From NCBI RefSeq assembly GCF_014280175.1, contig NZ_CP047931.1, positions 2,070,001 through 2,102,000 of the forward strand: a DNA stretch of 32,000 bases, in the 5' to 3' direction. Shown here piece after piece: positions 9,629 through 32,000 of the stretch. The DNA comes from Synechococcus sp. A15-28 (GTDB taxonomy: Bacteria; Cyanobacteriota; Cyanobacteriia; PCC-6307; Cyanobiaceae). Below the pieces are notes generated by a model. That model was not told the origin of the DNA. It did no database searches and saw only the letters and a program-made list of their open reading frames with translations. Each line of letters opens with the position of its first letter. Within the stretch, counting starts at the first letter, position 1. Both the position numbers and the translations under genes were made by a program.

Positions 9629-10885
9629 TCAGAGCTGATCACCCAGCTTTTCAGCCACGGTGTTGACGTCCTTGTCGCCGCGACCGGAGCAGTTGATCAC
9701 GATCTCGCTGCCCTCAGGCAGCGTGGGGCAGAGGGTCTCCAGCCAGGCGAAGGCATGGGCGGTCTCCAGGGCCGGAATGATCCCCTCCAGCTCACTCACC
9801 AGGCGCAGGGCATCGAGGGCCTGCTGATCGGTGACGGCGCCGTACTCAGCCCGTCCGATCTCGCGCAGGTAGCTGTGCTCAGGGCCCACACCCGGGTAAT
9901 CGAGACCGGCGCTGATCGAATGGGCTTCCTGCACCTGTCCGTCGTTGTCCTGCAGCAGCAGGCTCATGGCGCCATGGAGCACCCCGGCACGACCTTCGGT
10001 GATGGTGGCGGCATGGCGACCGGTGGCGACGCCATCACCAGCGGCTTCGACACCGATCAAACGCACATTGGTGCACTCCACAAAGGGGTGGAACAGCCCC
10101 ATGGCATTGGAGCCACCGCCCACGCAGGCCATCAGCACATCCGGCAGGCGACCGAAAGCCTCACGGCACTGCTGACGGGCTTCCTGACCGATCACGGCAT
10201 GAAAATCCCGCACCAGCATCGGGTAGGGATGGGGGCCGGCGACGGATCCCAGGATGTAGTGGGTTGTCTCGACGTTGGTGACCCAGTCGCGGATCGCTTC
10301 GCTGGTGGCGTCCTTCAGGGTGGCGGTCCCGGCCGTGACCGGTTGAACCGTGGCCCCCAGCAGGCGCATCCGGAACACATTCAGGGCCTGGCGCCGCATG
10401 TCTTCGGCGCCCATGTAGATCACACACTCCAGACCGAAGCGGGCGCAGACGGTGGCCGTCGCCACACCGTGCTGGCCGGCACCGGTCTCGGCGATGATCC
10501 GCTTCTTGCCCATGCGCAGGGCCAACAGCGCCTGGCCGAGGGCGTTGTTGATCTTGTGGGCGCCGGTGTGATTCAGGTCCTCACGCTTGAGCCAGATGCG
10601 GGGGCCACCATCGGCGCGGCGGTAGTGGGCCGTCAGCCGTTCAGCTTCGTAAAGCGGTGTGGCCCGGCCGACGTAGTTCTTGAGCAGCTGGTTGAGTTCT
10701 GCGGTGAAGGCGGGATCGTTCCAGGCCTGGGCCGCGGCCTGCTCCAGCTCCGCCAGAGCCGGCATCAGGGTTTCCGGAACGTACTGGCCACCGAAACGAC
10801 CGAAGCGACCGTGGGCTCCAGGACGCACGGAAGGCTGCAGGCTGGCGGGATCCGGCGTGCTGGCGGTCGGCAGGGTGCTGGTCAC
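9629..10885 (-). CDS. trpB: tryptophan synthase beta chain
   Basis: [14 protein letters not shown]-lysine motif and GGGSNAMG. 418 aa. Confidence 0.95.
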
Positions 10886-10963
10886 AGGGATCCACAGCGG
10901 AGCGTCGACTCAGGGTAGGCAGACGCGCTGCAGGCAGGATGGATCCGATTGCACGGAATTCGG

Positions 10964-13010: not shown

Positions 13011-13568
13011 TCAGGGGGTCGACATGCCGTCGAGATAGGCCGTGCTGCCGAGATCCAGCAGACGGGCATCCTTGGCCGCCACTGCATCGTGCAACCTGCG
13101 GCGATAGTCCGCCAGTCGAGCCGCCAGGGCCTCGTCCGCCACCGACAGGATCTGTGCAGCCAGCAATCCGGCATTGAGGCCGCCGCCGATGGCCATGGTG
13201 GCCACAGGAATGCCTCCCGGCATCTGCACAATCGAATGGAGCGAATCCACCCCGGACAGGGCTCGGCTTTGCACAGGGACTCCGATCACCGGCAGGGTGG
13301 TGAGGGCCGCCACCATCCCCGGAAGATGGGCCGCACCACCGGCGCCGGCCACGATCACACCGAAACCCTCAGCACGGGCCGCTTGAGCAAACGCCACCAT
13401 CTCCAGGGGCGTGCGGTGGGCGGACAACACCCGCACCTCCACCTCAACCCCCAGCTCCCGCAGGATGGCCGCGGCCGGTTCCATGGTCGGCAGGTCGGAA
13501 TCACTGCCCATCACCACGGCCACGCGGGGGAGAACTGTCGTCACGGAAAAGAACGGCAAGACTGTCAT
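13011..13568 (-). CDS. purE: N5-carboxyaminoimidazole ribonucleotide mutase
   Basis: [20 protein letters not shown] and [14 protein letters not shown] motifs. Start set to ATG 13568 (MTVLPFF...); the longer track ORF adds a non-homologous extension. Confidence 0.9.
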
Positions 13569-13601
13569 CGTCTCCCGCAGCGGCCCCTTCGGCCAGACCT
13601 G

Positions 13602-14753
13602 ATGCGACGGATCACCGATGTGCGCCTGCCCGCACCCCTCGGCAGCGACAGGGAGCGACGCCATTGGGTCGATCTCAACGATGACGGCTGCATCGTTGCC
13701 ATCCAGCCCCAGGTTGAGGCGGAACAACGCCATGGCACCAACTGGCACGGCGACTGGCTCAGCCCCCGCGGCATTGACCTGCAGATCAACGGTGGTCTGG
13801 GGCTGGCCTTCACTGAACTGGTCGACCAGGATCTGCCGCGGCTTATCGCGCTGCTGGAGCTGTTGTGGCAGGACGGTGTCGAGGCGATTGCCCCGACCCT
13901 GGTGACCTGTGGCATTGGCCCGTTACGTCGAGCCCTGGAGGTGTTGCGCCAGGCGCGGCGGCAGCATCAGCCGAGCCGCTGCCGTTTGCTGGGGGCCCAT
14001 CTGGAGGGTCCGTTCCTGGCGGAAGCCCGCCGCGGTGCGCATCCGATGGAGCATCTGGCAGCCCCCAGCCTGGAGGCACTGGAGCAGCGGATCGGCGGTT
14101 TTGAATCGGAGATCGCCCTGGTGACCCTGGCGCCGGAACTGGAGGGGGCCGCCGTGGTGATCCAGCGGCTGCGGCAGCTGGGCATCGCCGTCGCCCTCGG
14201 GCACAGTGCCGCCAAGGCAGAGCAGGCGGGCCAGGCCTTTGACCTGGGGGTGGAGATGATCACCCATGCCTTCAATGCGATGCCAGGACTGCACCACCGG
14301 GCGCCTGGACCACTGGGGGAAGCCTGCCGGCGGGGCGGTATCGCCCTGGGCCTGATCGCCGATGGGGTGCACGTGGACCCGACCATGGCGGTGCTGTTGC
14401 AACGGCTGGCCCCGGAGCAGGTGGTGCTGGTGAGCGATGCCCTGGCTCCCTACGGCCTGGCGGATGGCGAACACCGCTGGGACAAGCGGGTGCTGCTGGT
14501 GCAGAACGGCACCTGCCGGCTGGAGGACGGCACCTTCGCCGGGGTGACCCTGCCCCAGCTGGAGGGTGTCAGACGTCTTGCTTGCTGGAGCGATGAACCC
14601 GGCGCTGCAATCTGGAGCGCCACGGTGGCGCCGCGGCGGCTGAGCGATGGCGGCACGGGGGTGGAGGACGCCCTGCTGGGGAAACCACTGAAGGAACAGC
14701 TGCGCTGGAGCCGCCAAGCGGCTGGAGATCTGCACTGGGCCTGCGCTGCTTAA
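13602..14753 (+). CDS. nagA: N-acetylglucosamine-6-phosphate deacetylase
   Basis: [18 protein letters not shown] and THAFNAM motifs. Start at in-frame ATG 13602 (MRRITDV...). The upstream 171 codons of track ORF 13089.. are antisense to purE. Confidence 0.85.
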
Positions 14754-25303: not shown

Positions 25304-26232
25304 AGCCCCCCCAGGGCCAGTCCAAACGCCAGACCCAGGCCGTTCCAGGCCTGGAACCGCAGGGCCAGAAACTTGCTCCCGCTGATGCGGTCGGGCTGGT
25401 CATGGCAACGCCGCATCAATCGGATCAAAGCCAGACCCGCCGGAAGCCCCAGACCGCTCAGCAACACGGTGAAAGGCCAGTCTCCGTTCAGAACCGGAAG
25501 CCACTCCAGCGCCAGCGTCAAAGCCACAAACCAGGGCACCAACGCCGCAGCCCGTCCTGTGCCGAGACGCACCACCGGTGAACGTTTGCCGTGGGCCGCA
25601 TCCTCCTCCACCTGATGAAAATGTGAGCAAAACAGCACCAGGCTGGTGGCCAGGGCCGGCCCTGACCCCAGCATCCAGGCGGTTTCCCAAGGAATCGACG
25701 TCACCCCCCTGGGCTGCAACACCATCAGGGCCGCTGCGGTGGCAAAAGGCCCAAATGCCAGCCAGCACAGGGGCTCACCCAAGCCGCGATAGCCAAGGCG
25801 GAATGGCGGGCCCTGATACACGAAACCCAGTCCGCAGCACACCAACACCAGGGCCAACACCGTCCAGCTGCTGCTCCAGGCCAACCAACCCATCAACAAC
25901 AACCCCAGGGCCAAGGCGGAGGTCGCCCCCAGCGCCACCCGGTCCCGCCGTCCGGTGAGGTTCACCACGGAGTGGGGTTTGCCGGTGGTGTCGACACCCG
26001 TGGCCGCATCAAACACATCGTTGCTGAGGTTCTCCCACAGCAGCAGCAGGATGGCCGCCAACAGAAACCCGAACAACTGCGTCCAGCGCAGCGATCCAAC
26101 GGCACCGAGGCGCCACCCCGCCGCCAGCAGTACCGGCATCACCGCCACGGAATACATCGGCCACTTGATCGCGGCTTTCCACAGCAAACGCCGTTCGGCG
26201 TAACGGGATGCGACAGCCTGCGGCTTAACCAT
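25300..26232 (-). CDS. menA: 1,4-dihydroxy-2-naphthoate phytyl/polyprenyltransferase (UbiA family)
   Basis: NLSNDVFDAATGVD (NxxxDxxxD) motif, polytopic. Start at ATG 26232 (MVKPQAV...) within track ORF ..26412. Confidence 0.9.
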   Translation of the reverse strand: MVKPQAVASRYAERRLLWKAAIKWPMYSVAVMPVLLAAGWRLGAVGSLRWTQLFGFLLAAILLLLWENLSNDVFDAATGVDTTGKPHSVVNLTGRRDRVALGATSALALGLLLMGWLAWSSSWTVLALVLVCCGLGFVYQGPPFRLGYRGLGEPLCWLAFGPFATAAALMVLQPRGVTSIPWETAWMLGSGPALATSLVLFCSHFHQVEEDAAHGKRSPVVRLGTGRAAALVPWFVALTLALEWLPVLNGDWPFTVLLSGLGLPAGLALIRLMRRCHDQPDRISGSKFLALRFQAWNGLGLAFGLALGGL

Positions 26233-27706
26233 GGACTGGACCCGATTCCCGCGGGTGATCACCCATACATTTGAACAGTATCCCCGGCCGGAACCGCCGC
26301 AGATGTCGGCTGATTGTTCGTTCAGCAGTGTTCTCGAGGCCTCCCGGCAGGGCTGGATGGCCGCAGGAGGAGAGGACACGCTGCTCAGCCTGGCCCTGCC
26401 CCTCGATGGCATTGACCCGCTTCAGGCCCTGCCGGTGCTGGCAGATCAAGCCCCGTTCCAGATGCTCATGGACGGTGCCCCAGGGCTTTGTCTGGCGGCT
26501 GCCGGGTCCTGCCAGCAACTGGAACTGGACGGTGCACGTCGTTTCGAACTGGCCCAGCGCTTCGCCGATCTCAGCCTCAGCCGTCTGGTGGACACCAGGC
26601 CCGTCTGCCCCGCCCAGGCCAGGCCAAGGGTGGTGCTGCGCTTCCGATTCTTCGATCAGGTCGGGGAACACCACCACGGAGTCATGCACCCCCCAGCTGT
26701 CGAGGCGGTGCTGCCCCGCTGGCAGCTCACCCGTCAGGGACGCCGTGGCTGGCTCCGCCTCAATGGGGTCGTCAACGCCACCGCCGAAGCCCGGAATCTG
26801 GCCGAACAGCTCTGGCTCAAATGGGAACAACTTCAGAAAGAGCTGCCCCAAGTCGCGTCCAGTCGATCACCGACGCAGCTGACCAACGGCAACACAGAGC
26901 ATTGGAAACAGCGCTACAGCCGTGCTGTCGAACGAGGCATCGATCTGGTTAACAAGGGGGAACTGCACAAGCTGGTGCTGGCGGTGCGGCACACCATTGA
27001 TCTGGACACGCACTTCAATCCCTTGCCCCTGCTGCAGCGACTGAGGCGTCAGCAGGCCGGAAGCTGCCGCTTTCTATGGCAGCGGAACGCAGACGACGCT
27101 TTTTTCGGCGCCTCCCCAGAACGTCTGCTGAGCCTGAGGGGTGGCTGGCTGCGCAGCGATGCCCTCGCCGGAACCGCAGGCGAGGGCGATGACGGAAACC
27201 AACTGCTGCGCTCTGACAAAGATCGTCGTGAACATGAGCTGGTGGTGGACACGCTCACCAACCAGCTGTTGCAGATGGGACTGACACCCTGTCGCCGCCG
27301 CCTGCCGCAGCTGGCCCGCCACGGCCAACTCACCCATCTGCACACCCCGATCACGGCTGAGGTGCAGGAAAGGCCAGTGCTCAGGCTGGCAGAACAGCTG
27401 CATCCGACCCCTGCCGTCGCTGGCTTGCCACGACGGGAAGCCATGGCCTGGTTGCGCACGCTCGAACCCTTCGAGCGAGGCAACTATGCGGCACCTATTG
27501 GCTGGATTGATAACCAAGGTGATGCAGAGCTTCGTGTCGCCATTCGCTGCGGCCACGCCCGAGGACATCAGATGGAGTTCACAGCCGGCGCAGGGCTCGT
27601 TCGCGGCTCATGCCCGGATCGGGAAATGCAAGAAGTAGATCTAAAATTACAAGTTCTGATTAAGGAATTTGACGCAGCAACAATTTTTAATGTCAGAAAT
27701 GCCTGA
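26231..27706 (+). CDS. menF: isochorismate synthase
   Basis: Chorismate-binding motifs LHPTPAVAGLPR, ERGNYAAPIGW and FTAGAGLVRGS. Start ATG 26231 or ATG 26303 (MSADCS...). The last ~27 codons are AT-rich. Confidence 0.9.
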   Translation: MDWTRFPRVITHTFEQYPRPEPPQMSADCSFSSVLEASRQGWMAAGGEDTLLSLALPLDGIDPLQALPVLADQAPFQMLMDGAPGLCLAAAGSCQQLELDGARRFELAQRFADLSLSRLVDTRPVCPAQARPRVVLRFRFFDQVGEHHHGVMHPPAVEAVLPRWQLTRQGRRGWLRLNGVVNATAEARNLAEQLWLKWEQLQKELPQVASSRSPTQLTNGNTEHWKQRYSRAVERGIDLVNKGELHKLVLAVRHTIDLDTHFNPLPLLQRLRRQQAGSCRFLWQRNADDAFFGASPERLLSLRGGWLRSDALAGTAGEGDDGNQLLRSDKDRREHELVVDTLTNQLLQMGLTPCRRRLPQLARHGQLTHLHTPITAEVQERPVLRLAEQLHPTPAVAGLPRREAMAWLRTLEPFERGNYAAPIGWIDNQGDAELRVAIRCGHARGHQMEFTAGAGLVRGSCPDREMQEVDLKLQVLIKEFDAATIFNVRNA

Positions 27707-27764
27707 TCAAAGGGTTCCCCTCCTTCAGCAATACTAAAATAAGAATAATGAATTAATCGAGGAA

Positions 27765-28904
27765 ATGGCAGCAAACGATGTTGCGTCAAATTTTTATGAC
27801 GCTTTTGTCGCTTACCTGCAAAGCGAAAAAGGAGAAAGGAAGGAAAGCAAAAAAGCTTTGAGATCTTTGATGTCTAAAGATTTCAACTTGAAAGTCTCTG
27901 GCACACCAGGAATTGTCTCCAACGCCTACGGAGCATCCAATCAACCCGTCAAAAACGACGGCACGGGAGATCCTCTCTACAGCGACGGCATTCCTAATGG
28001 ACGCTCCAACGCGATGAAGCGGTTCAAGGCACTCCGCAAAGAAATCACCACCGACTCAGTCGAAGTTGATTTCGTCATCGGCGGGGAATTCGGCACATCA
28101 TTGACCATCACAGATCCGGTGACGTGGGCAACAGAACCCATGACGGACAGGGTGGTCATACTCTCTGACCATTACGCAACGGCCAAAAATACCAACAACA
28201 ATTTCCGCCTTGATGTCGCGAGCTTCTTCACAGTCGGCGATGACGACAAAGTCAACGACTTTGAAATGCGCTTCGACTCCTATGTGATGTCACAAGCCAT
28301 GTCAGGCATGGAGCCTTTGATCGCCAATCCAGATATGGACGAGGCGATGCAGGGGTATCGCGATAGTTCTGTAACCACAGATCAGACCATTAACGGCACA
28401 TTTACATTCTTCGGGACATTTGCAACCGCGGCACCCCCAGATCCAGACAACCTTGACGTGATCGCACCCGTTCTAACGGACGAGGTGAGAGTCAAGTTCC
28501 AGGGAGATCCCAACTTTCAACTCTCGGCCCGCGACATAATTGGCATCGGGAAGGATGACTATTTAGCCGTACAAAAAGGCTCATGGGTGCAAAGCATCAG
28601 TGAACTTTTCACGATGGAAGAAATCTATGCTCTTGATGACATTTCTGTCGCAAACTATAAAGAACAACGGATTTCATCTGGACCTGGTTTTTCCGAAGAA
28701 GGCCATGGGCCGAGCCTAGGAAATCGGTTTGTTATGGACGCAGCAATCATCACCTACATTCATAACAACGAGGAAAACCCTGACCTCCCTCAACTCACTG
28801 CGTCAACGGAAGGGTTATTTGATACAGCACCGATCGTGGAAGCAACCTACGGATCAGAGCCTTTTCCAATTCCTACCCAAAGCTACGTTGGACCATTGGC
28901 GTAA
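27765..28904 (+). CDS. hypothetical protein A, putative tandem NTF2/SnoaL-like fold (379 aa), paralog of 29007..29996
   Basis: Long uninterrupted ORF in lower-GC DNA, with GAGGAA immediately upstream of the ATG. Shares blocks with the next gene (see finding). No signal peptide or TM segment. Confidence 0.8.
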   Translation: MAANDVASNFYDAFVAYLQSEKGERKESKKALRSLMSKDFNLKVSGTPGIVSNAYGASNQPVKNDGTGDPLYSDGIPNGRSNAMKRFKALRKEITTDSVEVDFVIGGEFGTSLTITDPVTWATEPMTDRVVILSDHYATAKNTNNNFRLDVASFFTVGDDDKVNDFEMRFDSYVMSQAMSGMEPLIANPDMDEAMQGYRDSSVTTDQTINGTFTFFGTFATAAPPDPDNLDVIAPVLTDEVRVKFQGDPNFQLSARDIIGIGKDDYLAVQKGSWVQSISELFTMEEIYALDDISVANYKEQRISSGPGFSEEGHGPSLGNRFVMDAAIITYIHNNEENPDLPQLTASTEGLFDTAPIVEATYGSEPFPIPTQSYVGPLA

Positions 28905-29006
28905 TACTTTGCAGGGCACCATGCCAGTTTAATCTTTTCTTTAGATCAAAGAAGGTCGTTCTGCGAAATTTTAGTTAAAATAAAGTTAAGCATACCCAGC
29001 TTAAAG

Positions 29007-29996
29007 ATGGCCACTGCAGCAGAGATTTCATCAAACTTTCTCGCAGTCTACGAAGATTATTTGAAAGGAGAGGCATCTGCCAGAGATCTTCGTCCCTTTT
29101 TGGCCAAAGATGTCGTACTAGACAGGTCTGGTCAGGCCGGCCTGATTTCTTCAGTCGGCGGCGTCTTTGAGGGCCGATCAACAGTAATCAAAAACTTCAA
29201 ACGTTTGCGCCAACTGGTCTCTACTGAAGAGATGCCAGTTCATGACGTCCTGTCCAACAGTTTTGCTGTCAGTCCAACCTTTGAATTTACGCCTCAAACC
29301 GACAGAATTGCTGCGGCCACAGACCAGTTCTCAACTGTCAGAGAAAACGGCAAGTCGTTTCGTCTCGACCAAATTGCCTACATGACTGTTAATGCGAAGG
29401 ATCGAATCTCAGATCTTCGCTTCCACTACGACAGCTACCCCATGGCTGAAGCCATTGTTGGGGAGGACGATCAGATTCCCAACCCAAACATGGATGATGT
29501 GTTGGAGCCTGTCCGAGATCGTGACATCGATACTCAAACAGCATTCGGAATCGTTGGTAACTGGTTTGGCACCTTCGGAGGAATTCAAGGTAGCAAAACA
29601 GGAGACACATCTGGACTCACAGCTCTCGAGCCAGTAACCCAACCCGACGCGCTGATTAAATTCCAAGGCGATCCAGACCTTCTCCCCTTTGCCGACTCAG
29701 AGGTTCGCCAAGGAATCGACGCCTTTATTCAGACATTCGCAGATCAGTGGGAACACAGCTACGACCGTGAATTCGAAATCCAGGAGTACTTCTATGAGAA
29801 CGACAAAGTGATCGTGAATACACGCGAAAAGCGCATGGCCATTCCTTCGAATCGTCATTATGACGTCATGGTCTCTATCGTTCAAACTGCATCGTCTGAA
29901 AATGGAGGCCGCGTCAATTCCAATGAGGGAATTTTTGATACCATGATCACAGTGACCGCTTTCGAGGGAGAGTATCCCTTCGTTAATGCTTGCTAA
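29007..29996 (+). CDS. hypothetical protein B, putative tandem NTF2/SnoaL-like fold (329 aa), paralog of 27765..28904
   Basis: Long ORF with colinear shared motifs with protein A. Followed by an intrinsic terminator. Confidence 0.8.
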   Translation: MATAAEISSNFLAVYEDYLKGEASARDLRPFLAKDVVLDRSGQAGLISSVGGVFEGRSTVIKNFKRLRQLVSTEEMPVHDVLSNSFAVSPTFEFTPQTDRIAAATDQFSTVRENGKSFRLDQIAYMTVNAKDRISDLRFHYDSYPMAEAIVGEDDQIPNPNMDDVLEPVRDRDIDTQTAFGIVGNWFGTFGGIQGSKTGDTSGLTALEPVTQPDALIKFQGDPDLLPFADSEVRQGIDAFIQTFADQWEHSYDREFEIQEYFYENDKVIVNTREKRMAIPSNRHYDVMVSIVQTASSENGGRVNSNEGIFDTMITVTAFEGEYPFVNAC

Positions 29997-30045
29997 ATCA
30001 TCCGAGGAAAAGTTGAATCGCCACAGTCCTGTGGGATGAATCCAG

Positions 30046-30073
30046 AAGCCGACCTGAAAAGGCCGGCTTTTTT
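30046..30073 (+). terminator. rho-independent terminator after gene B
   Basis: AAGCCGACC-tgaaaa-GGCCGGCTT stem (9 positions, one A/C mismatch) running into TTTTTT, 50 nt after the stop at 29996. Confidence 0.6.
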
Positions 30074-30094
30074 GTGGGTTGCTCTACAAATCAA

Positions 30095-30122
30095 TTGCCA
30101 GGAGCTCAGAAATATTTAGAGT
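30095..30122 (+). promoter_or_regulatory. candidate sigma70-type promoter for the aldo/keto reductase
   Basis: TTGCCA (30095..30100), 16-nt spacer, TAGAGT (30117..30122), 24 nt upstream of ATG 30146. Sequence match only. Confidence 0.3.
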
Positions 30123-30145
30123 ATATATGTACGAATACGACTCAA

Positions 30146-31321
30146 ATGAAGTATCGCCTTCTCGGTAGGTCAGGACTACGCGTTTCCGAAATGTGCCTCG
30201 GGTGTGGCACGCTCGGGACCAATTGGGGAGATTTAGGGGCCAATCAAGAAGAGTCCAATAAGATCCTCGAAGGCTTCGCCAATGCAGGTGGAAACTATCT
30301 GGACACCTCAAACCGATATCAAGAATCGCAGTCAGAGCAGTGGGTCGGTGACTTCATTCAAAGAGAAAGAGATTTCTTTGTTGTCGGAACGAAATATTCC
30401 CTGGGTGATGGCGCAGCAGATTTCAATGGTGTTGGCAAGCCAACCAATCAAAAAGACCCGAACAACCGCGGTAATCACCGCAAAAACCTGAGGCGATCGG
30501 TGGAGGGCAGCTTGAAGCGCCTGAAAACTGATTACATCGACGTCCTTTGGCTTCACATCTGGGATTACACAACCCCATTTGATGAAATCGTCCTGAGTGT
30601 CAATGATCTCATCAAAGAAGGCAAAGTCCTCTATGCAGGCTTGTCCAGTGTGCCTGCGTGGCAGGTCTCACGCATGAACACCTATGCCGATTATCACGGT
30701 CTGCACCCGTTCATTGCACTACAAAATGAGTGGAGCCTGGTCGAGCGGTCGCACGAACCAGAATACCTGCCCATGTGCAAAGAACTCGACATTGGAATGA
30801 CCTGCTGGTCCCCACTTCACGGTGGACTTTTATCGGGTAAATACACCACCGATTCCGTGGATCCCTCAATTCCGAATCGAGTACTACCGCACGTCAAGGA
30901 CAGCAGTCAATTCTGGTACGAAGCAACCCAGAGGAACCTGGCCATCCTGAAAGAACTTCAACCCATCGTGGACGAAATTGGAGAGCCATGGACTGCATTT
31001 GCGCTGCGCTGGCTGATGCAACAAAAGGAGACCGTCACGATTCCGATTTTCTCAGTACGCACCGCTAAGCAACTCACTGATGCATTGCGAGCTACAGAAT
31101 TTGAACTCAGTGACGAACAAATGGCAAAAATCAATGCCATCTCATCACCTGCGATCACATCGCCGTACCCGGCCTTTGGCGCTTACCCATACACGATGCT
31201 TGAGTACGGAAGCCCAGCACTCCCCAACTTCTTCTCAAGGGCACTGCTTTATGGAGAGACCGAGGCAATGATTGAAAACCACCGTGTTCCTCATCCCTAT
31301 CAGTTTCAGATGGAGGGCTGA
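30146..31321 (+). CDS. aldo/keto reductase family oxidoreductase (391 aa, long form)
   Basis: MKYRLLGRSGLRVSEMCLGCGTLG N-terminus. Tetrad candidates D (YLDTS), Y (NRY), K (VGTKYS), H (VLWLHIWD). SLKRLKTDYIDVLWLH block. The track ORF starts at GTG 30074 inside the terminator T-tract, so ATG 30146 is preferred. Confidence 0.85.
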   Translation: MKYRLLGRSGLRVSEMCLGCGTLGTNWGDLGANQEESNKILEGFANAGGNYLDTSNRYQESQSEQWVGDFIQRERDFFVVGTKYSLGDGAADFNGVGKPTNQKDPNNRGNHRKNLRRSVEGSLKRLKTDYIDVLWLHIWDYTTPFDEIVLSVNDLIKEGKVLYAGLSSVPAWQVSRMNTYADYHGLHPFIALQNEWSLVERSHEPEYLPMCKELDIGMTCWSPLHGGLLSGKYTTDSVDPSIPNRVLPHVKDSSQFWYEATQRNLAILKELQPIVDEIGEPWTAFALRWLMQQKETVTIPIFSVRTAKQLTDALRATEFELSDEQMAKINAISSPAITSPYPAFGAYPYTMLEYGSPALPNFFSRALLYGETEAMIENHRVPHPYQFQMEG

Positions 31322-31389
31322 CCCGCCCAGCTGAATCCAGGACGTTTGTGGCGTTTTTCAGACTTTTTATCCTGCAGAGAAAAAAGCAG

Positions 31390-31395
31390 TAGAAT
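31390..31395 (+). promoter_or_regulatory. candidate -10 box TAGAAT upstream of the outer-membrane protein gene
   Basis: TAGAAT lies 20 nt upstream of ATG 31416. There is no convincing -35. Confidence 0.2.
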
Positions 31396-31415
31396 TCCTC
31401 AAATGCTTATTTTAG

Positions 31416-32000
31416 ATGAAGCGGACTTCAGCAATCATTGCATGTCTTGCGACGTTTGCTTCACCTGCTCTTGCAGGAGAAGAGTCGGAATCCACAAATT
31501 GGCTGCCTGGCTCTCAACCCGCTGAGGCAGTCATTGAGGACTCCGAGTCTGAAATCACACCAGAACAGATTGCTGATCGAATTAAAGAGCTCGAAATTGA
31601 GCTGATCAAATTAAAGAAAGCCGCAGGCGTTTACGGAAAAGGCAAAAAGATTGCTTTGCCCAAAAACGGAATTTACGTACAGGCCGATATCGGGATACAA
31701 CAGCGTGAATGGTCAGGGGAAAATGGCAATACTCAGTTGTTCTTCAACGAGGGCCTCTACGGTGGTCTAGCTGTTGGCTATCGCTACGACCGCAATTTCC
31801 GTTTCGCGTTTGAATACTCTGAAATGAATAATGATGTCAGCGATATGCGAGCAGGTAATGGTGGCCAACTCTTCCGAGATCCTAAAAATAAAGATGTCAT
31901 TCTTCAGGATGGATCGTCTAAAGTTTCCGGTAATGGTGATGTAAAACTGCAAAGCTACACACTAAATGCATATTATGATCTGAATGGGTTTGGTCATGAA
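31416..32000 (+). CDS. 5'-partial gene: secreted outer-membrane beta-barrel protein (OMP_b-brl/OmpA-like barrel type)
   Basis: Absent from the ORF track because it has no stop in the window. Hand translation from ATG 31416 is open for 195 codons to the window end. It gives MKRTSAIIACLATFASPALA|GEE (signal peptide), an acidic stretch, the coiled-coil-like EQIADRIKELEIELIKLKKAAG, then amphipathic strands YVQADIGI, GLAVGYRY, FRFAFEY and LQSYTLNAYYDL. Confidence 0.7.
   Translation, partial: MKRTSAIIACLATFASPALAGEESESTNWLPGSQPAEAVIEDSESEITPEQIADRIKELEIELIKLKKAAGVYGKGKKIALPKNGIYVQADIGIQQREWSGENGNTQLFFNEGLYGGLAVGYRYDRNFRFAFEYSEMNNDVSDMRAGNGGQLFRDPKNKDVILQDGSSKVSGNGDVKLQSYTLNAYYDLNGFGHE

Follow-up and report, generated by a model that had tools for sequence, protein, structure and literature searches.

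Positions 27,610 to 32,000 of a 32,000-nt stretch of the genome of Synechococcus sp. A15-28 (RefSeq assembly GCF_014280175.1, contig NZ_CP047931.1, positions 2,070,001 to 2,102,000 of the forward strand; the whole stretch is hereafter called the window) belong to a low-GC segment, which is a six-gene accessory cassette of about 7.4 kb that fills the junction between the core genes menF and gshB. The cassette encodes two long paralogous proteins, A and B, with a predicted tandem NTF2-like architecture, a long aldo/keto reductase (AKR), a predicted outer-membrane beta-barrel protein (OMP), a second exported protein and an oxidoreductase of the GMC family. It is very probably a laterally exchanged island. 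Its exchange probably took place by homologous recombination through the conserved flanks, and its products may, much more tentatively, handle a small neutral alcohol or carbonyl compound. Lateral origin, recombination through the flanks and alcohol or carbonyl handling together form the explanation that we favour, with rather more confidence than doubt.

Composition, limits and gene content of the island

The composition of the window changes abruptly towards its end. Calculated in 1-kb windows, GC content ranges from 0.59 to 0.685 over positions 1-27,500 and from 0.466 to 0.498 over positions 27,501-32,000, and as these two ranges do not overlap, the fall in GC content described in the original prediction is borne out. 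A similar division is seen in the GC content at third codon positions (GC3), which is 0.78 in menA and 0.71 in the body of menF, but 0.40-0.55 in the island genes, i.e. 0.2-0.3 under the level of the host, and 0.27 in the final 99 bp of menF. The high-GC remainder of the window carries ordinary core genes, among them those for NAD kinase, NDH-1 subunits, citrate synthase, HrcA and a class-V aminotransferase besides the men genes.

The limits of the island were obtained by alignment to the empty site of L043 (L-numbers denote the genome or metagenome contigs that were compared), which is the closest surveyed relative of the window, with about 85% nucleotide identity in the flanks. L043 aligns to the window through position 27,609 and, after a gap of 7,443 bp, again from a point within gshB that lies 13 bp from its 3' end, while its own sequence between both alignment edges amounts to only about 80 bp. 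A boundary had been expected at about 27,625, after menF; the drop is there, but the actual edge lies at about 27,610, within menF. Indeed, the left edge of the island consists of the last ~100 bp of menF in all variants, and this segment has a GC content of 0.38-0.49 in every island-bearing variant as against 0.63-0.64 in genomes with an empty site or with an S9 peptidase gene at the junction. The AT-rich tail nevertheless retains the code for the conserved EVxLKLxVL end, the C-terminal helix, of MenF. The gene itself adjoins menA in all picocyanobacterial loci, and its start is placed later by gene callers than in the longest open reading frame (ORF) of Table 1 (449 aa on the near-identical contig L014). 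A low-GC tract that reaches ~1.2 kb deep into menF in L017 was considered as well and rejected, because the same dip is found in empty-site genomes and is intrinsic to menF.

The window covers about 60% of the island. The right edge, which was to be sought beyond position 32,000, was found ~3.05 kb further on, at the 3' end of gshB, and the parts of the island outside the window were read from L012, a contig 99.4% identical to the window. Both L012 and L014 are metagenome contigs, 98-99% identical to the window; L017, a divergent 22-kb contig, has the same gene layout. In this layout menE, menC and menA lie on the reverse strand and are followed on the forward strand by menF, paralog A, paralog B, a terminator, the AKR gene and the genes of the OMP (295 aa) and of the other exported protein (330-346 aa), and then, again on the reverse strand, by the GMC gene (506 aa) and gshB (Table 1). 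The island had been described as four co-oriented genes, which is correct for the ORFs in the window but not for the gene count, since the whole island comprises six genes including that of the GMC enzyme on the opposite strand.

Table 1. Features of the island and its left flank. Coordinates are positions in the window unless a contig is named.
Feature	Coordinates	Strand	Size	Evidence and remarks
menF (isochorismate synthase), left flanking core gene	26231..27706	+		longest ORF; Pfam Chorismate_bind 1.2e-61
In-window part of the ~7,443-bp low-GC island	27610..32000			composition and alignment to empty-site L043
Low-GC replacement 3' end of menF, left edge of the island	27610..27706	+	~32 last codons	GC 0.37 and GC3 0.27, against 0.64 and 0.71 in the remaining menF
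Separable two-paralog module	27682..30041	+		in L032 the alignment stops at 27,681 and restarts at 30,042; 228 unrelated bp lie between
Paralog A, predicted tandem NTF2-like	27765..28904	+	379 aa	no signal peptide; 100% identical to an A15-28 hypothetical protein
Paralog B, predicted tandem NTF2-like	29007..29996	+	329 aa	no signal peptide
Intrinsic-terminator-like hairpin and T-run, between paralog B and AKR	30045..30078	+		-22.2 kcal/mol, z=-3.17, 0/200 shuffles as good
Long AKR	30146..31321	+	391 aa	~50-aa C-terminal extension; PF00248 3.1e-70, 237 bits
Exported small beta-barrel OMP (predicted)	31416..32000, cut by window end	+	295 aa in full	signal peptide MKRTSAIIACLATFASPALA followed by GE
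Second exported protein	L012:5255-6295	+	346 aa	signal-like N-terminus; ends ...TTTF
GMC oxidoreductase	L012:6364-7884	-	506 aa	GMC_oxred_N and GMC_oxred_C, 151 and 98 bits; adjoins gshB (-)

The menF-gshB junction in other picocyanobacteria

The surroundings of gshB were scanned in one genome per species (GTDB), which yielded 80 loci onto which the cassette proteins were mapped; both gshB and menF are present in 67 of them. These two genes converge and abut (<=150 bp, sometimes overlapping) in 43 of the 67 species genomes, which agrees with the original prediction, according to which menF is followed directly by core genes such as gshB/grxC in relatives. Unrelated fillers occupy the junction in a further 23, namely an insert of ~2 kb in 16 and others of 1.3-3.3 kb in seven. 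In the one genome whose ~2-kb insert was read (WH7803, L058:10960-12981), it encodes a 673-aa secreted protein of the S9 (prolyl-oligopeptidase-like) type. The menF-gshB junction is thus a general variable slot and is not specific to this cassette. Only one of the 67 (L032, Synechococcus AG-670-B23) carries part of the cassette, which is accordingly accessory, not core, as had been proposed.

Some details of these junctions are worth recording. Gaps of a similar size of ~2 kb are found in L027, L034, L044, L046, L048-L054, L056 and L059-L062, and the fillers of 1.3-3.3 kb in genomes of freshwater Cyanobium and Vulcanococcus. At their 3' ends, gshB and menF seem to overlap by ~20 bp in L028, L031 and L025 (e.g. 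L028:10900-10921, in tblastn coordinates). Where they do, the empty site has no intergenic DNA, which may explain why the island brings its own menF tail.

At least four variants of the cassette occupy the same slot in several marine Synechococcus lineages, so the proposal of a strain-specific insertion did not hold. Two of them, the A15-28 type (L012) and the L017 type, contain both paralogs. A third (L101/L102, overall GC 0.43) contains a single A-type paralog, and its proteins share 49% (A), 84-90% (AKR), 75% (OMP), 69% (346-aa protein) and 75% (GMC) identity with those of the island. The L032 variant consists of the AKR, the OMP, the 346-aa protein and the GMC enzyme and lacks any paralog. 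Compared with L032, the paralog module is a clean indel of 2,360 bp, the right edge of which coincides with the terminator hairpin. Paralogs of the B type (81-83% identical to B) also occur alone (L001:1200-3101, L002-L010 and L106), in a low-GC patch between a high-GC gene for a cobO/btuR-type adenosyltransferase and a convergent gene for a rhodanese-domain protein, which constitutes a second islet.

Probable exchange between lineages

Between lineages, the genes beside the island have diverged far more than the island itself. Nucleotide identity between A15-28 and L017 is 82-97% in the island genes and 58-76% in menE, menC, menA and menF, and the AKR and GMC proteins are 99% and 97% identical, compared with 63% for MenF and 70% for MenA. 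This contrast points to an island that is much more recent than its host genomes. The flanks are mosaic. Between L017 and L032, the whole of menF has the high identity of the island (88-91%), as against 70-73% for menA and 78-83% for gshB; likewise, the gshB side of L017 is 95% identical to the empty-site genome L021 and its menF side only 69%. The left breakpoint of similarity varies with the pair of lineages and is situated either ~100-200 bp before the menF stop or at the boundary of menA and menF.

No tRNA, flanking direct repeat, Rfam family or PADLOC defence model was found at the island. Likewise, integrase, recombinase, transposase and phage genes are missing from every complete cassette copy, none of the six proteins contains a recombinase domain, and the right junction shows no second copy of the displaced menF tail. 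As the island is more alike than its flanks, the breakpoints differ and no signatures of mobility are present, we infer that it was probably exchanged by homologous recombination through the conserved flanks. The earlier reading of the sequence had seen no integrase, transposase, tRNA or flanking repeat, and had considered the mechanism of acquisition unknown; the former observation stands, whereas a route can now be proposed. One point limits the case for lateral exchange: purifying selection could partly produce the high identity of the island, even though it would hardly account for 92-97% in the island next to ~65% in the flanks.

Divergence between A15-28 and L017 is uneven within the island, with 85% identity in paralog A and, in the two exported proteins (L012:4361-6295, from window position 31416 onward), 88% in the OMP and 89% in the 346-aa protein, and nucleotide identity falls to 68-74% inside the OMP gene. 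Either the island itself has recombined internally or its surface-exposed proteins evolve faster, to judge by this pattern.

Alternatively, the island could be the remnant of a site-specific element (a phage, an integrative and conjugative element or an integrative island) that targeted the 3' end of menF and supplied a replacement tail. The same low-GC menF end of ~100 bp in all island-bearing variants would fit such an origin, as elements that enter the 3' ends of genes leave similar traces. However, complete copies contain none of the integrase, recombinase, transposase, tRNA or phage genes of such an element, neither a duplicated menF tail at the right junction nor direct repeats exist, and the breakpoints vary between pairs of lineages and can take in the whole of menF, so that we regard this origin as highly improbable. 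An ancestral core segment of odd composition that was lost repeatedly, with no island at all, would account for the constant position of the cassette in marine Synechococcus, but is effectively refuted by the clean empty site of L043, by an identity of the island between lineages that greatly exceeds that of the flanks and by its presence in one of 67 species genomes, and the GC3 deficit of its genes against the host likewise disagrees with it.

The tandem-NTF2 paralogs

The two long proteins of the island had been taken for paralogs, and this is confirmed by 28% identity over their full length (E=7e-42). Putative NTF2/SnoaL folds had been suggested for them too. Paralog B matches Pfam SnoaL_2 (PF12680) in its C-terminal half (35.4 bits against a cut-off of 27; 1.8e-8), and paralog A scores 13.1 bits, below the same gathering score of 27. 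AlphaFold models of the two proteins reach a pTM of 0.77 for paralog A (0.74 and 0.77 across both models). The N-terminal domains are modelled confidently (pLDDT ~85-95; ~90 for B) as three helices followed by a curved sheet, and the C-terminal domains show the same pattern at lower confidence. For paralog A, the best Foldseek match is Lsd19 (3rga; 1.8e-9), and single NTF2 domains are matched with a TMt of up to 0.84. For paralog B, the matches comprise Lsd19 (E 2e-8), MonBI/BII, limonene-1,2-epoxide hydrolase (LEH) and ketosteroid isomerase (KSI). The tandem enzymes Lsd19 and MonBI/BII rank ahead of the single-domain NTF2 proteins (LEH, KSI and putative isomerases; TMt up to 0.85) for both models. 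An NTF2-like/SnoaL fold of both paralogs is thus supported by the models, which match tandem as well as single-domain NTF2 structures.

The resemblance to known enzymes has clear limits. Like Lsd19 and MonBI-MonBII (PDB 3RGA, 4RZM, 9KW6), the paralogs are predicted to combine two NTF2/LEH-like domains in one functional unit, but they are only 10-12% identical to them, with a whole-chain TM of 0.3-0.4 and a root-mean-square deviation of 16-19 A, so the arrangement of the domains is either different or mis-modelled. Furthermore, neither the island copies nor the related loci have a polyketide synthase (PKS) or epoxidase domain. Each half of a paralog resembles single-domain LEH, KSI and SnoaL-type cyclases (TMt 0.7-0.85; 3dm8, 3ec9, 7epn and LEH), whereas in the paralogs such domains are fused in tandem and carry invariant motifs specific to the family. 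Finally, iota-carbonic anhydrase, also of tandem NTF2 type (7C5X), is found by Foldseek with an E of ~1e-6, yet with a TM of 0.16-0.26, 10-12% identity and no match to its PDB sequence.

An internal duplication could not be demonstrated by sequence comparison of the N-terminal with the C-terminal half (hhalign E=0.21). The alignment of the family has 46 invariant columns, including the motifs FRLD, DSYxM, NPxMD, KFQGDP and EGxFD. In the numbering of paralog B, R119, D121, D142, Y144, K218, Q220, D222, E274, R276, E307 and D311 are among the invariant residues. R119-x-D121...D142 was compared by eye with the Arg-x-Asp...Asp triad of LEH; by this comparison the residues would fall on a different strand, and we make no claim of a shared triad.

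The family is very rare. An exhaustive profile search of 1.84 billion representative clusters recovered 22, a search of 5.8 billion proteins yielded three clusters for B and 23 for A, and a metagenome scan with the family alignment found only six loci. Relatives of the A type (~49% identity) travel with AKR, OMP and GMC genes in L101 and L111-L114. Elsewhere (L116:1-5415), SnoaL_2/NTF2 segments are found together with NHL or lactonase-like repeats in giant proteins 1,000-2,100 aa long; one of these giants is annotated as 'sugar lactone lactonase YvrE/ketosteroid isomerase-like'. Three of the giants, P0040, P0041 and P0044, match the FRLD...DSY region of the paralog family weakly (E 1e-8 to 1e-4).

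The oxidoreductases and the exported proteins

Downstream of paralog B, the terminator that had been proposed is plausible, since the hairpin and T-run at 30045-30078 fold better than shuffled sequences (Table 1). A scan for consensus terminators missed this hairpin, and the terminator and promoter scans performed no better than on shuffled sequence. An independent promoter of the AKR gene, also proposed earlier, is not supported, since promoter-like sites are no commoner than in shuffled sequence.

The long AKR was confirmed as such by its Pfam match. Its start is almost certainly the ATG at 30146 (391 aa) and not the GTG at 30074 (415 aa), because the GTG falls within the hairpin and because the homologues, DepB and the genes on the near-identical contigs begin with MKYRLL. 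The nearest solved relatives are DepB (E 2.4e-46) and AKRs that act as deoxynivalenol 3-epimerases, and the Asp-Tyr-Lys-His tetrad aligns with that of DepB (DTSNRY, GTK, LWLH). All NCBIfam equivalog cut-offs are missed by far: YdjG methylglyoxal reductase, the best, scores 118 bits against 550 and Kv-beta 115 against 365, the models tested also including YghZ/AKR14, Tas and DkgA/B. The form with 380-395 aa is mainly cyanobacterial, with relatives in Cyanobium CH-040 (71% identity) and in metagenome-assembled genomes (MAGs) of Oscillatoria, Xenococcaceae and Crocosphaera (58-59%); one planctomycete (55%) is also among them.

The GMC enzyme has the motif GxGxxG for flavin adenine dinucleotide (FAD) as IIVGAGAAG (residues 8-16), and the His of its WHPVGT (HPxGT) aligns with HHPCGT of pyridoxine 4-oxidase, which, together with alcohol oxidases, is its nearest solved relative. 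It thereby resembles pyridoxine 4-oxidase (4HA6/3T37), the alcohol oxidases and choline oxidase/dehydrogenase in its GMC domains, GxGxxG and HPxGT His, but the His pair found in pyridoxine oxidase is missing (TIWHP instead of THHHP). It also remains below the NCBIfam cut-offs for choline dehydrogenase BetA (246 bits against 732) and mycofactocin MftG (226 against 387) and so falls outside these curated equivalog families. Neither the AKR nor the GMC enzyme has a signal peptide, and with the AKR tetrad, the FAD motif and the active-site His of the GMC enzyme kept, both look catalytically competent.

An exported beta-barrel protein had been predicted at the window end, and the evidence agrees: the signal peptide of the OMP ends in ALA before GE, its C-terminus is ...VRYTF, i.e. 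a Phe, and the full-length protein (L012) matches Surface_Ag_2 with 26.9 bits (cut-off 22) and, weakly, Opacity. A homologue in L111 matches OMP_b-brl (6e-9). Relatedness between this 295-aa OMP and the exported 346-aa protein was not detectable.

A larger low-GC cyanobacterial locus

The same five gene families recur in L111-L114, in another order, at 37-73% identity and with the addition of a MIP channel, in a locus of ~20 kb with a GC content of ~0.46-0.47. It begins with genes on the reverse strand for an RsbW-like kinase, a STAS protein, an isoamylase, a second STAS protein and a GlcNAc-2-epimerase-like protein. There follow on the forward strand the A-type paralog, the OMP, a 330-aa protein, the MIP channel and the AKR, then the GMC gene on the reverse strand and a gene for a CBM48/X25 protein on the forward strand, and finally a ThiJ-like protein, a thiamine pyrophosphate (TPP) enzyme, a 140-aa protein, a small SnoaL_2 protein and a glyoxalase on the forward strand and a flavoprotein with a cyclic-nucleotide-binding (cNMP) domain on the reverse strand. 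These contigs are probably of picocyanobacterial origin, to judge by 57-87% protein identity and by synteny with Cyanobium sp. CH-040 (L115:4000-18220, JAGQCJ010000003.1). The latter contains the AKR/GMC pair in a block with ThiJ, TPP, SnoaL-like, glyoxalase and SpoIIE genes, in which the proteins are 57-87% identical to those of L113, save for a CBM-like protein at 49%. The GC content of this block is 0.46-0.53 compared with 0.61-0.64 in the flanks (adjacent 4 kb), and hence it looks foreign and island-like in freshwater picocyanobacteria too.

More distant versions were also found. On a contig with a GC content of 0.43 that carries P0223 (the cluster is named after a Xenococcaceae cyanobacterium MAG), the AKR lies beside SnoaL_2, zinc alcohol dehydrogenase and DJ-1/PfpI genes, and its neighbours also comprise glyoxalase, GlcNAc-2-epimerase-like and STAS genes; several of the proteins share 60-75% identity with their L113 counterparts. 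In a bacterium from bioreactor sludge, the syntenic locus contains a distant relative of tandem-NTF2 type (28-33% identical).

The five families thus occur together both in the marine menF-gshB cassettes and in the divergent setting of L111-L114, and the A15-28 island is a six-gene excerpt of a widespread and apparently undescribed cyanobacterial locus. Shared with it are the long AKR (60-78%) and the GMC enzyme (50-57%) and, in L111-L114, also the A-type paralog, both OMP-like genes and the low GC content. By contrast, the island is a subset of six genes in a different slot, has the B-type paralog in addition and is devoid of the MIP channel and the regulators. From their sequences, the recognisable members of the larger locus are enzymes of aldehyde and alcohol chemistry and partner-switching stress regulators.

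Possible function of the cassette

Our proposal of a role in the handling of some small neutral alcohol or carbonyl compound is tentative, and we would not call it the expected outcome. According to it, the two exported barrel-type proteins would provide passage through the outer membrane, the cytoplasmic, FAD-dependent GMC enzyme would convert a hydroxyl to a carbonyl group, and the NAD(P)H-dependent AKR would reduce carbonyls. The two oxidoreductases could form an oxidise-then-reduce pair or a sink for reactive aldehydes, and the tandem-NTF2 proteins might act as optional isomerases, hydrolases or dehydratases next to a carbonyl or epoxide group or as binders of a ligand. It is the occurrence of AKR and GMC genes together with A-type paralogs in a locus with ThiJ/DJ-1, glyoxalase, TPP and stress genes from which a carbonyl or alcohol role gains its likelihood.

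A precedent for the pairing of GMC enzyme and AKR is the epimerisation of deoxynivalenol by DepA and DepB (8HWN, 9WK1, 8HW0), in which a dehydrogenase makes a ketone that an AKR then reduces (PMC6056672, PMC9427786). DepB is the nearest solved AKR and the tetrad is conserved. However, the likeness does not go beyond membership of the AKR superfamily (a domain score of 160 bits across residues 1-342, with no close family match), the ~50-aa C-terminal extension of the island AKR, typical of the long and mainly cyanobacterial form, is a further difference, and the partner oxidase is here a FAD-dependent GMC enzyme, whereas DepA is an enzyme with pyrroloquinoline quinone (PQQ).

Several observations count against this proposal. 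None of the six proteins has a known substrate, and both oxidoreductases miss the curated equivalog cut-offs by a wide margin. Searching all PDB sequences with a profile of the paralog family yielded nothing but noise (E>1), and, with the C-terminal domains of the paralogs modelled at low confidence, no catalytic residues can be assigned. The label of a barrel for the 346-aa protein, which has no Pfam or NCBIfam match, derives from its signal peptide and ...TTTF only. The theme of carbonyl detoxification, moreover, is guilt by association in other organisms, as the ThiJ, glyoxalase and TPP genes are missing from the A15-28 island, and detoxification of internal aldehydes has no obvious need for outer-membrane channels, with which the uptake of an external compound fits better.

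Such an uptake is the subject of the main alternative, in which the cassette is a module for import and catabolism of an external polyol, sugar alcohol or small neutral solute, and thus a niche-specific trait of mixotrophy. The compound would enter via the two OMPs (and MIP in the fuller variants), be oxidised by the GMC enzyme and be processed further by AKR and NTF2 proteins. The conservation of two exported OMP-type genes in the cassette is consistent with this, as are the glycerol-facilitator-like MIP gene between the OMP-type genes and the AKR gene in L111-L114, the alcohol and pyridoxine oxidases as nearest solved relatives of the GMC enzyme, and the carbohydrate genes (isoamylase, CBM48/X25 protein, GlcNAc-2-epimerase-like) of the larger locus. 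The A15-28 island, however, has no inner-membrane transporter and no kinase, aldolase or other entry to central metabolism, and the partners found elsewhere (DJ-1/ThiJ, glyoxalase and partner-switching regulators) look more like genes of stress response or detoxification. We consider this alternative unlikely; it differs from the detoxification reading mostly in the direction of flux and in purpose.

A role in the tailoring of secondary metabolites, with the NTF2 proteins as polyether epoxide hydrolases of the Lsd19/MonB type or as cyclases of the SnoaL type, redox tailoring by GMC enzyme and AKR, and export by the OMPs, is suggested by the structural matches, since Lsd19 (3rga) and MonBI/BII are the best and share the architecture of two NTF2 domains, and by the Pfam matches to SnoaL_2 and SnoaL, a family of polyketide cyclases. 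These similarities are undermined by the low identity (10-12%) and whole-chain TM (0.3-0.4) without any match at sequence level. In addition, no PKS, non-ribosomal peptide synthetase, terpene synthase or epoxidase gene is encoded in the 7.4-kb island or in the related loci of ~20 kb, and the paralogs are dispensable in L032, all of which leaves tailoring improbable.

Quinones or polyketide-like aromatics can be substrates of AKRs and of NTF2 enzymes, and the cassette is adjacent to menF, menA, menC and menE, so it might serve the naphthoquinone (men, phylloquinone) pathway, e.g. in the reduction or isomerisation of a quinone intermediate. Such a link, on which the original prediction had speculated, is not supported and seems very remote, because most picocyanobacteria have no such cassette beside their men genes, the homologous cassettes of L111-L116 and Cyanobium CH-040 are situated away from men genes, in a locus of stress or carbonyl type, and the slot takes unrelated cargo as well, such as the S9 peptidase of WH7803.

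Going beyond alcohol and carbonyl handling as such, the tandem-NTF2 proteins might represent a new enzyme family that forms, with the AKR, the GMC enzyme and the OMPs (and MIP), an unrecognised cyanobacterial pathway, although this is doubtful. If true, the pathway would serve to take up or remove a specific small neutral carbonyl or polyol compound, for example an aldehyde of algal or photochemical origin, and would be traded among ocean Synechococcus as a niche-adaptive module via flank-mediated recombination.

Relation to known islands

Low-GC islands are well known from the flexible genome of marine Synechococcus and Prochlorococcus (Dufresne et al. 2008, PMC2441476; Dore et al. 2020, PMC7522525), and A15-28 is a clade III strain analysed in the latter study. 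The existence of an island is hence unsurprising to the specialist and overturns nothing known. With these islands the cassette shares its atypically low GC content, a patchy distribution among related strains, a cargo of unknown or niche-related function and a position between conserved core genes; it differs from them in its small size (7.4 kb), in the absence of a tRNA, integrase or phage gene and in a left edge that replaces the 3' end of a core gene. No description of the cassette was found in the literature: neither the two studies cited above nor a gene-cluster survey from 2023 (PMC10119275) mentions the cassette, menF, gshB, GMC or AKR.

Small islands of this kind are a route by which marine picocyanobacteria gain niche-specific traits. 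What makes the present one useful is its precise empty site, its four natural variants, in which two NTF2 genes, one or none are present, and its signature of recombination. It also links a tandem-NTF2 family that is very rare and uncharacterised with the conserved pair of AKR and GMC enzyme and with a wider undescribed locus of stress or carbonyl type, and it offers a testable hypothesis together with natural knock-out variants.

Additional observations

Two long ORFs on the forward strand of the high-GC core, at positions 9755-10918 (387 aa) and 13089-14753 (554 aa) of the window, have no Pfam match at E<=1e-5. Both overlap long ORFs on the opposite strand and may be spurious frames or unannotated genes. 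Directly beyond menE, L017 contains an ORF of >3,133 aa (L017:1-5291), at a place where L014 has short genes for a TM2-domain protein and a thioesterase; this ORF beside the men cluster may be another lineage-specific insertion.

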